From a virus (taxonomy: Duplodnaviria; Heunggongvirae; Uroviricota; Caudoviricetes), in the IMG/VR virus record IMGVR_UViG_2526164651_000005: a stretch of 16,069 nucleotides of DNA; one strand, 5' to 3'. A model generated the notes under the pieces. It made no database searches. It was not told where the DNA came from and saw only the letters and a list, made by a program, of their open reading frames with translations. Made by a program: the position numbers and the translations under genes. Positions 1,940-2,401 of this stretch are shown one piece after another (positions within the stretch are counted from its first letter, which is position 1; every line of letters begins with the position of its first letter).

Positions 1940-1968
1940 AAAAAAAGCGGCCCCGAAATGGAGCCGCC
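1940..1968 (-). terminator. Rho-independent terminator read on the minus strand
   Basis: On the minus strand GCGGCUCC-AUUUC-GGGGCCGC forms an 8-bp stem (one G-U pair) followed by U7. On the plus strand the stem is poorer and the U-tail is weak, so the signal is orientation-specific. Confidence 0.5.
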
Positions 1969-2062
1969 TTTCTGAACAGATAACCCGCTGCGCCGTTTGT
2001 GTGTGTGATCCCAAACATAAGCACGGGGATGATAGCCGCTATCAGGCTGGTGGGCAATGCAA

Positions 2063-2239
2063 TCAGTCTGGTTCAGTGCGTTGCCATAACTGCGAAGTTC
2101 TCTCCTTTGATGAGTATTCTTTAAGGTACTTCTCAAGGGCAAAAGAACACGGCGCGAATCGTTCTGATTCATGCTCTTTCTTTCTGCGTCGTCTTTTTTG
2201 TGCAGGTGATGTTTTTTCGGTTGATTCTTCGTTGGTCAT
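2063..2239 (-). CDS. Hypothetical small basic protein, 58 aa (MTNEESTEKTSPAQKRRRRKKEHESERF...)
   Basis: ORF found by manual translation of the minus strand (below the 60-aa track cut-off). It ends about 95 nt upstream of the minus-strand terminator at 1940..1968. Weak Shine-Dalgarno. Confidence 0.25.
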   Translation of the reverse strand: MTNEESTEKTSPAQKRRRRKKEHESERFAPCSFALEKYLKEYSSKERTSQLWQRTEPD

Positions 2240-2296
2240 TGTGTGCGCCTGTAAAGCAATGCGCCGTAGTACCTCACACCACGGCGCTGATAGTTT

Positions 2297-2401
2297 TTAT
2301 CCTTTGGGTTCTATGCCGCGTTGCTGTAATTCTTTGCGGATTATTCGCTTTATCCAGGCAGCAAGAGAATCATCGCCGTCCTGTTGTTGTGCCTTTTCCA
2401 T
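2297..2401 (-). CDS. Hypothetical small protein, 34 aa (MEKAQQQDGDDSLAAWIKRIIRKELQQRGIEPKG)
   Basis: Manual minus-strand translation; GGGAAAAG immediately upstream. First ORF leftward of the divergent control region. Very short, so low confidence. Confidence 0.2.
   Translation of the reverse strand: MEKAQQQDGDDSLAAWIKRIIRKELQQRGIEPKG

Follow-up and report, generated by a model that had tools for sequence, protein, structure and literature searches.

A candidate ribbon-helix-helix repressor cassette nested antisense in an open frame of a phage satellite

Which strand carries the information between alpA and the Icd-like gene (icd) of a capsid-forming phage satellite? We addressed this question in the 16,069-nucleotide (nt) IMG/VR virus record IMGVR_UViG_2526164651_000005, hereafter the window (the whole stretch of DNA analyzed). 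The window is a 16-kb capsid-forming satellite of Escherichia coli/Shigella, of the phage-inducible chromosomal island (PICI) type. RefSeq annotates the alpA-icd interval in three incompatible versions (records behind our loci L001, L002, L003, L090, L091 and L093): as small genes on the minus strand, as a 247-amino-acid (aa) hypothetical coding sequence on the plus strand (O157:H7), or as a pseudogene on the plus strand named “Icd-like” or “ash family”. The original prediction, made from the letters of the window, had favored minus-strand small proteins or a non-coding RNA, and had set aside a 248-aa plus-strand open reading frame (ORF) as unlikely to be protein. We find that neither strand of the interval can simply be discarded. 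The minus strand carries a 59-aa ribbon-helix-helix (RHH) gene and a partner gene, orf58, while the plus-strand frame opposite them, here called the bridge ORF, appears to be kept open by selection in satellites. That positions 1794-2605 form a compact two-strand regulatory module, with a repressor cassette nested antisense in a translated bridge ORF, is in our judgment an even call.

The leftward ribbon-helix-helix gene and its operators

To judge by its homologues, the 59-aa gene is kept at full length in four orders of Gammaproteobacteria. Among 5.8 billion proteins searched, 117 homologues were found; most are 59 aa long (many are called at 51-104 aa) and share an N-terminal MSTH. They come from Enterobacterales, Orbales (Gilliamella and Frischella), Pasteurellales, and Aeromonadales (Oceanisphaera and Oceanimonas). 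The 34-aa minus-strand ORF proposed earlier (2401..2297) has the right coordinates, but it is not a gene of its own: it is the C-terminal part of the 59-aa ORF and starts at an internal methionine (residue 26). Across all RHH classes, the ratio of nonsynonymous to synonymous differences (pN/pS) is saturated (pS 0.78) and uninformative, and it was recalculated within a single class. Within the window's class, the RHH frame has a pN/pS of 0.108, as against 0.243 for the antisense frame with the same wobble positions and 1.1-4.5 for the other frames.

By fold class, the 59-aa protein appears to be an RHH, sister to the YlcI/YnfO class and not a curated member of it. An alternating-hydrophobic strand, PFQFRL (residues 13-18), is followed by a helix, a DGD turn, and a second helix, which gives the beta-strand and two helices of an RHH within about 45-50 residues. 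Among profiles, the protein matches PHROG 228, “Arc-like repressor”, best (E 2e-6). Its score against NCBIfam YlcI_YnfO_N (NF041551) is 20 bits (E 5e-4), under the curated cut-off of 30, and searches of the protein against Pfam and against PDB sequences gave no match. AlphaFold2 (AF2) models the protein with a predicted local distance difference test score (pLDDT) of 80, and the helices at residues 20-33 and 38-52 reach 93-94. The top 36 Foldseek matches in the PDB are almost all RHH chains (NikR N-domain, CopA, Arc, CopG, PutA, ParD, and AmrZ), with the weak statistics of a very small query (E >1, probability <=0.85, TMq ~0.6).

Comparison between loci indicates that the DNA-reading strand of this protein covaries with palindromes upstream of its gene. 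We compared 80 loci taken from one genome per species, together with E. coli loci, and each beta-strand class pairs with a palindrome of its own that lies at a set distance (about 36-50 nt) 5' of the start codon. The window's class, GNPPFQFRL, goes with ATGTGT-N4-ACACAT in 41 of 43 loci. Class RSPxYQMRL goes with ATGGTAATTACCAT (15/19 loci), KTDQYQIRL with GTTGTAATTACAAC (2/2), and GNKQIALRV with AAGTGT-N3-ACACTT (5/17, with variants in the others). There were no cross-matches between classes and palindromes, and at most 0.7% of random segments hold any such site. YlcI/YnfO-type RHHs (59 or 101 aa) fill the same slot in other E. coli islands and have their own repeats there, for example GTGTTGAACAC and GTGTCGGACAC. 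Thus, the beta-strand seems to read repeats in the gene's own promoter, and we infer that the window's protein binds its three palindromes. These sites occur in 2463-2525 and nowhere else in the 16-kb window, and they overlap both putative divergent promoters.

The global repressor of Gram-negative PICIs has been described as “unclear” (PMC6092414), and we found no mention of an RHH regulator in these islands in the literature searched. With a candidate that is conserved, falls into immunity-like specificity classes, and has matching operators, the repressor question becomes testable.

The second leftward gene, orf58, is by the same kind of comparison a real protein gene. The original prediction had listed this basic ORF, and it is present as described. 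Its homologues keep the start, their indels come in multiples of three, and the core EHESERFAPC-F-LE--LKEY is invariant. The pN/pS of orf58 is 0.39 in its own frame versus 0.50 in the antisense frame, and its mismatches are conservative in its own frame (mean BLOSUM62 -0.25) versus radical in the antisense frame (-1.44). The one family that orf58 matches is phrog_21027 (E 4e-12), of unknown function; Pfam, NCBIfam, and PADLOC gave no match. A profile search of 1.8 billion representatives gave about 10 clusters, two of which were rejected as repeat-protein false positives or palindromic contig artefacts. Two 203-nt contigs (P0005 and P0006), in which plus-frame sequence is flanked by orf58 on both sides, are palindromic artefacts of assembly and do not represent genes.

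All E. coli islands examined have a homologue of orf58 (44-71% identical) 3' of the RHH gene, and this synteny is independent of RHH class, alpA type, and integrase. The orf58 proteins and loci found are from E. coli/Shigella only. In genera other than Escherichia, the RHH gene is followed by a terminator, a small lipoprotein-like ORF, or a second RHH gene. This slot takes cargo, and the variation of its contents outside Escherichia implies that orf58 is an accessory partner, not core. In Raoultella, Edaphovirga, Erwinia, and Rahnella (L006, L010, L019, and L046), a 47-53-aa ORF with a signal/lipobox-like N-terminus and conserved Cys residues begins about 3 nt past the RHH stop. A second RHH paralogue occupies the slot in Gilliamella/Orbaceae (L041 and L043) and in an Enterobacterales metagenome-assembled genome (L045). 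Some E. coli islands carry tandem leftward regulator cassettes (L002, 2738-3989; L084, 1739-2864), each a window-type RHH plus a YlcI/YnfO-type RHH; the second cassette of L002 has its own orf58-like partner.

Could the two genes be a toxin-antitoxin, addiction, or accessory (moron) module that regulates only itself and does not repress the island? RHH proteins are common antitoxins, and here the RHH gene leads an operon of two genes and has palindromes in its promoter. The protein also has a weak VapB-antitoxin profile match (E 0.012), its homologues carry the name “HicB family” at the Joint Genome Institute (JGI), and the cargo after it varies in other genera. However, orf58 matches no toxin or defence family in the three collections named above, and the pair does not qualify as a type II system. 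Most loci lack orf58 and have the RHH gene alone beside a terminator, and the 59-aa RHH has almost no C-terminal extension with which to hold a toxin. Furthermore, the palindromes overlap the putative rightward -35/-10 of the replication operon, and the position of the RHH gene relative to icd/primase is kept across orders. We therefore consider a self-regulating module improbable.

The antisense frame between alpA and icd

Stop counts across loci indicate that selection keeps the bridge frame open from alpA to icd in satellites, and that the 248-aa frame is not the artefact it had been taken for. We compared loci less than 80% identical to one another: 34 in satellite context, as assigned by a tblastn proxy, and 19 controls, which are RHH loci without adjacent alpA, icd, or primase. 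The bridge frame is fully open in 28 of the 34 satellite loci versus 2 of the 19 controls (Fisher 4e-7). For the bridge frame (F) and the two others (F+1 and F+2), satellite loci carry 8, 127, and 58 stops in the 110 nt right of the RHH gene, versus 36, 65, and 29 in controls. Inside the RHH gene, the counts are 2, 89, and 129 versus 11, 61, and 48; in the 100 nt to its left, they are 9, 63, and 99 versus 26, 30, and 32. An antisense stop within the RHH gene occurs in 2/34 satellite loci versus 11/19 controls (p 5e-5). The controls share the operator and the hairpin upstream of the RHH gene, so these elements do not force openness. The frame is also open in E. coli islands with different cassettes, over 804/804, 885/885, 1095/1109, 762/763, 852/853, and 714/719 nt of the alpA-icd interval, and in Xenorhabdus, Erwinia, Pantoea, and others.

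Might the frame be a mere shadow of the two minus-strand genes, without plus-strand selection? Its third codon positions coincide with those of both genes, and some openness is therefore expected. A stop in the bridge frame spans two sense codons of the minus-strand genes, and synonymous resampling that uses this relation leaves the frame open with a probability of 0.24 for the RHH gene and of 0.69 for orf58; the wobble-sharing frame is the one most often open by chance. The odd amino-acid composition of the bridge ORF also suits a shadow, as does the presence of a 242-aa shadow ORF inside the primase gene. Against this, the portions without minus-strand genes, 444 nt in all (3' untranslated region [UTR] and terminator, intercistronic spacer, operators, and leader hairpin), contain no stop in the bridge frame, whereas dinucleotide shuffling yields 6.05 on average. 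Zero is reached in only 0.14% of the shuffled sequences, and the other two frames carry 12 stops each. The flanks of the RHH gene in the 34 diverged loci carry 17 stops in the bridge frame versus about 174 per other frame. Synonymous resampling predicts an antisense stop within the RHH gene in 76% of cases, and the same gene outside satellites lacks the open frame. The frame thus appears to be kept beyond what overlap alone would bring, and a mere shadow is very improbable. The 242-aa ORF itself (minus strand, window 4516-5244) resembles an ordinary shadow ORF; length alone is no proof.

The two ends of the frame suggest that it is translated. Among 31 loci, about a dozen place a clear Shine-Dalgarno sequence (GGAGG, AGGAG, GAGG, or GGAG) 6-8 nt 5' of the ATG. 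In loci with a neighboring alpA, the distance from the alpA stop to the ATG is 5-12 nt in three (L022, L066, and L077) and 37-93 nt in six others, and in several loci the ATG lies just 5' of the A tract of the leftward terminator. At the other end, the stop overlaps the start of the next gene (ATGgcTGA), or the ORF runs in frame into the Icd-like domain, as it does in 13 of 16 representative loci with adjacent icd (p 1e-4 versus one third). In the window, the frame is open from the alpA stop (1794) to a TAG at 2595-2597, which lies inside the icd Shine-Dalgarno sequence, AGGAG, 8 nt 5' of the icd ATG. A conserved plus-strand frame had been named beforehand as the observation that would count against the original prediction; such a frame is found, with a Shine-Dalgarno sequence and ATG past alpA and a stop at, or in frame with, the next gene. 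In L002 and L084, the plus strand has two long open stretches each (765 nt plus 942 or 810 nt), which overlap at a frame change and span most of the interval.

What the bridge ORF encodes looks less important than that it stays open: it appears to be translated, with an unconstrained product. As had been noted, the ORF spans both the terminator and the operator palindromes and has a composition unlike that of a protein (6.9% Cys, 11.7% Ser, and 8.9% Arg versus 1.0, 3.8, and 6.0% in the primase). It has no domain or family match in Pfam, NCBIfam, or PHROG, and Pfam domains are likewise absent from ten bridge ORFs of other genera. AF2, given an alignment of relatives, reaches a pLDDT of 33, with all 248 residues below 50. 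We thus see neither purifying selection nor a foldable domain. Its database relatives are 944 proteins of 214-434 aa, annotated as hypothetical, as Icd-like, or as Ash. Their alignment is a mosaic: the frame and the ends persist, but unrelated sequence takes the place of the middle module, and the swapped modules are antisense to other repressor classes. The apparent motifs KTKAAL/KKAAP and KAMRRSTSHHGAD are translations of the terminator and the intercistronic hairpin.

True dual coding is the alternative to an unconstrained product. Here, the plus ORF would be a functional long isoform of Icd/Ash/Bro type whose centre is antisense to the RHH cassette, and the frame would be open since the protein is needed. 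The in-frame junctions with the Icd-like domain point this way, as do the strong Shine-Dalgarno sequences of many loci, the 944 database proteins, some with PF10554 Phage_ASH, and the “Bro zone” of domain-swapping proteins described in the literature (PMC10111431). In EcCICFT073 (L093), a 428-aa plus-strand ORF (14767-16053) runs from 53 nt past alpA to the end of Icd, with a sub-threshold Bro-N remnant near its N-terminus (aa 52-91, E 0.069) and the Icd domain at its C-terminus. However, the window's ORF ends before icd and matches no domain, and the same lack of Pfam domains holds for the ten ORFs from other genera. The middle module is non-homologous among relatives and the frame is still open, substitutions in the plus frame are radical (the mean of -1.44 given above), the AF2 model is of low confidence at every residue, and lengths spread from 121 to 595 aa. 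Dual coding is in our view unlikely, although it deserves to be kept in sight.

Terminators, hairpins, and a proposed switch

The leftward unit ends at a terminator that is oriented leftward only. The hairpin at 1940-1968 is a real intrinsic terminator on the minus strand, as had been predicted. On that strand, the stem GCGGCUCC/GGGGCCGC (1967..1947) has 8 bp with one G.U pair and the loop AUUUC, U7 follows, and the fold in a 61-nt context reaches -24.8 kcal/mol (z -3.9). On the plus strand, the same hairpin reaches -15.4 kcal/mol (z -0.9), an A.C mismatch replaces the G.U pair, and the tail is only CUUUCU. The combination of a G+C-rich stem-loop and a U tract is thus found on the minus strand and not on the plus strand. 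An automated terminator scan missed this hairpin because pairing of the A7 tract with U7 makes the stem longer. Among E. coli islands, there are at least three different hairpins between orf58 and alpA, and other loci have leftward-only terminators that differ in sequence from the window's. A separate scan across loci found a site in 18 of them, where the median number of U in the 8-nt tail is 6 leftward versus 2.5 rightward, and just one has a rightward U tract; these cross-locus scans are crude, miss some sites including the window's, and are used as support only. The automated scan found no plus-strand terminator-like site between alpA and icd in the window.

Further hairpins surround the RHH gene. 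The one between the RHH gene and orf58 is kept in E. coli islands and may be an attenuator, or a processing/stability element, that sets the RHH:orf58 ratio by partial termination or processing. A second, two-tier hairpin combines a G+C outer stem with an inner GTGYT/AGCAC stem, about 60-70 nt 5' of the RHH start (L001-L090), and is kept in nearly all RHH loci, non-satellite ones included. Its G.U pairs (203 in 79 sequences) make it more stable on the RHH-sense strand than on the other strand in nearly all loci. On its 3' side come a U-rich tail and a TTG resembling the leftward -35, and its plus strand falls in the leader of icd, within the bridge frame. This hairpin resembles a leftward terminator or insulator. 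It could also mark the end of a short antisense RNA across the icd start, but no promoter for one was found. Within the icd-like coding region, the plus strand carries a terminator-like hairpin, CACACAAA-cggcc-TTTGTGTG followed by GCGTTTTCTG (window 2641-2661). The conserved WRFLAL motif is read from its U-rich tail, and the hairpin could act as a translation-sensitive attenuator.

A non-coding RNA, derived from the 3' UTR or antisense, could in principle be the leftward product and act on alpA or icd messages. The 3' block 1794-2057 is strongly conserved. Directly past the orf58 stop, a 14-nt motif, ATTGCCCACCAGCC (2058..2045, minus strand), is found in every E. coli island examined; its flanks differ among L001-L003 and L084-L091, and orf58 reads through it in L002 and L085. 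A perfect 15-nt inverted repeat, GCCGTTTGTGTGTGT/ACACACACAAACGGC (1992-2006/2638-2652), links the 3' UTR with icd codons 11-16, and P1/P4-type elements use C4/CI RNAs beside icd (PMC10111431). However, no Rfam family matches at its gathering score in the whole window, and at E <=10 the region 1500-3100 gives only sub-threshold chance matches, with no C4, CI, or isrK. We rejected the 15-nt repeat as an RNA-RNA pairing: it is present in L001 and L090 but not in L091 and L003, where one partner varies, and it is probably chance in GT-rich sequence. Furthermore, the 3' block is shared with the int-alpA module and may reflect recent common descent, and both minus-strand ORFs are under protein-type constraint. 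We regard a non-coding RNA as the least probable of the readings weighed here. A 41-aa hydrophobic minus-strand ORF (2057..1932) was also rejected as a small toxin; it crosses the terminator, has a TTG start, and owes its conservation to the invariant int-alpA-linked block.

On the minus strand, then, the original prediction was right about small proteins and about a unit ending at a leftward-only terminator. The RHH fold, the low pN/pS, and the operator covariation support the first gene; the substitution pattern and synteny support orf58. Its other option, a non-coding RNA, finds no Rfam match, and its dismissal of the 248-aa plus-strand frame does not hold.

How might the two strands act together? 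A promoter beside the palindromes would drive the leftward operon, which comprises the RHH gene, the intercistronic hairpin, orf58, the 3' UTR, and the terminator. In the uninduced island, RHH protein on the three sites would repress both its own promoter and the rightward icd/primase promoter, and would thus be a candidate for the island's maintenance repressor. The leftward terminator would halt the transcript before it enters alpA antisense, and the hairpin at 2544-2576 would insulate the cassette from leftward transcription arriving from the right. On induction, a helper phage would turn on the AlpA-activated alpA promoter, and transcription would read rightward past the one-way terminator. 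Translation of the bridge ORF would keep Rho off an otherwise untranslated stretch of 800 nt, and its ribosomes would melt the two hairpins and then pass to icd. Convergent transcription would meanwhile hamper RHH synthesis.

AlpA activates island genes, including a reporter fused to what that study calls “ORF3”, downstream of alpA (PMC6092414). The AlpA antiterminator of Pseudomonas aeruginosa was rejected as a model for the read-through: it is an eight-helix Q-like protein, as against the 62-aa PF05930 AlpA, and the shared name is coincidental. C/G composition as an indicator of Rho sites was uninformative, apart from a C-rich stretch at 2473-2555.

A fuller version of this proposal is tentative. 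It would hold that Gram-negative islands carry a previously unrecognised RHH cassette nested antisense in a “ribosome bridge” that selection maintains. AlpA-driven transcription, together with translation, would overrun the repressor, bypassing the operator-controlled promoter, the terminators, and Rho polarity, and silencing repressor synthesis.

Several points weigh against reading the interval as a two-strand module. Both putative promoters are weak, were read by eye, and lie under the scan threshold. Profile support for the RHH assignment is modest (20 versus 30 bits in NCBIfam, no Pfam match, and Foldseek E >1), and the beta-strand is absent from the AF2 monomer model, as expected because this strand pairs only in the dimer. 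The window's own bridge ATG (1851) has no Shine-Dalgarno sequence. In-frame continuation into Icd and the Bro-N remnant of EcCICFT073 suit a functional long protein at least as well. Finally, the loci are related by descent, and the p-values above overstate their independence.

If the two-strand module is real, the bridge ORF would be a natural example of selection for the openness of a frame and not for its product, and the interval would be a compact switch built from overlapping antisense information. This would be relevant to gene finders, to satellite engineering, and to the coupling of island induction to helper phages.

The island and known systems

Close relatives of the window in E. 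coli and Shigella are inserted between roxA and phoQ, which is the same integration site as that of EcCICFT073 and, in O157:H7, of the capsid-forming island. The leftward unit converges on the rightward alpA gene, and the Icd-like gene is the first of the rightward replication operon. This gene order (alpA, leftward orf58 where present and RHH, then rightward icd/primase) is kept in the 34 diverged loci and is also present in the experimentally studied EcCICFT073. Coordinates are collected in Table 1.

Table 1. Features of the alpA-icd interval and its surroundings. Positions are those of the window unless L093 is stated.
Feature	Position	Strand	Remarks
P4-type integrase gene	1-1230	+	
alpA, 62 aa	1605..1793	+	Pfam PF05930 Phage_AlpA, E 5e-18
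Bridge ORF, 248 aa	1851..2597	+	Antisense to RHH gene and orf58
Intrinsic terminator of leftward unit	1940..1968	-	Hairpin 1967..1947, then U7 1946..1940
3' UTR of leftward unit	1969..2062	-	
orf58, basic 58-aa protein	2063..2239	-	pI 9.2
Intercistronic hairpin, RHH/orf58	2261..2287	-	11 bp, two G.U pairs, weak U tail
RHH gene, 59 aa	2297..2476	-	GTG start; GAGG at 2490..2487, 10 nt upstream
Operator region	2463..2525	both	Three palindromic sites about two helical turns apart
Operator site	2463-2478		Weaker, 2 mismatches
Operator site	2481-2497		ATTACAcctcaTGTAGT
Operator site	2504-2519/2505-2525		ATGTGTaatgACACAT
Putative rightward promoter	2470-2475 and 2494-2499	+	TTGACA (perfect), 18-nt spacer, TAGTGT; by eye
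Putative leftward promoter	2544..2539 and 2521..2516	-	TTGCTT, 17-nt spacer, TAATGT; by eye
Two-tier hairpin	2544..2576	-	Then UUUGCUUUUU on minus strand; abuts leftward -35
Icd-like gene, 66 aa	2606..2806	+	NCBIfam NF033153, E 6e-18
DUF4222 gene			3' of Icd-like gene, before primase
Primase gene	3692-5443		3' of DUF4222 gene
Capsid, protease, portal, connector, and terminase genes, then phoQ	Right part of window		
RHH gene of EcCICFT073	L093 15474-15653	-	L093 is E. coli CFT073 1377930-1388700
orf58 homologue of EcCICFT073	L093 15243-15416	-	

The closest working analogue of the candidate module is the immI region of phage P22, with its Mnt/Arc repressors, and the closest positional analogue is Stl/Rpr of Gram-positive PICIs. 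In P22 immI, the small RHH repressors Mnt and Arc, divergent promoters, and an antirepressor operon act together; the small repressor binds operators that overlap both promoters and regulates its own synthesis. Likewise, the window has a small RHH gene divergent from an operon of early/anti-immunity type, and its palindromes overlap both putative promoters. The differences are clear, however. The window's protein has no detectable identity to Arc or Mnt beyond fold class, the operon that it would control starts with an Icd-like gene and primase, and its repressor gene lies wholly inside an antisense open frame, which P22 lacks.

Like Stl/Rpr of Gram-positive PICIs, including the Staphylococcus aureus pathogenicity islands (SaPIs), the window's RHH is a small putative regulator divergent from a satellite replication/packaging operon (PMC6092414). 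Unlike Stl/Rpr, it has a different fold and size, and it is not co-oriented with int: both int and alpA are on the plus strand, and the RHH gene points toward them. Induction of Gram-negative islands also goes through AlpA, not through an anti-repressor. Gram-negative PICIs, the prototype capsid-forming island included, have been mapped as essentially unidirectional (PMC6092414, PMC10111431).

The YlcI/YnfO proteins of lambdoid prophages (NF041551) share the beta-alpha-alpha pattern and the slot, and RefSeq uses their name for relatives in other E. coli islands, although the window's protein falls short of the family cut-off, as noted above. The bridge ORF, for its part, resembles antiparallel overlapping or shadow ORFs in being a long frame antisense to real genes with coinciding third positions. 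Unlike ordinary shadow ORFs, it crosses promoters, operators, and terminators, is maintained in satellite context only, and tiles exactly from the upstream gene to the downstream gene.

Rho polarity is established bacterial genetics. In phage P1, the translation of icd reportedly decides whether transcription continues, via Rho-dependent polarity, a finding associated with Riedel, Heinrich, and Schuster. As in P1 immI (c4 RNA - icd - ant), an Icd-like gene heads the operon that would be controlled in the window, and the proposed bridge shares the same polarity logic. Unlike P1 and P4, the window has no detected C4, CI, or isrK RNA, and the control proposed here would instead lie with an RHH protein and an upstream ORF.

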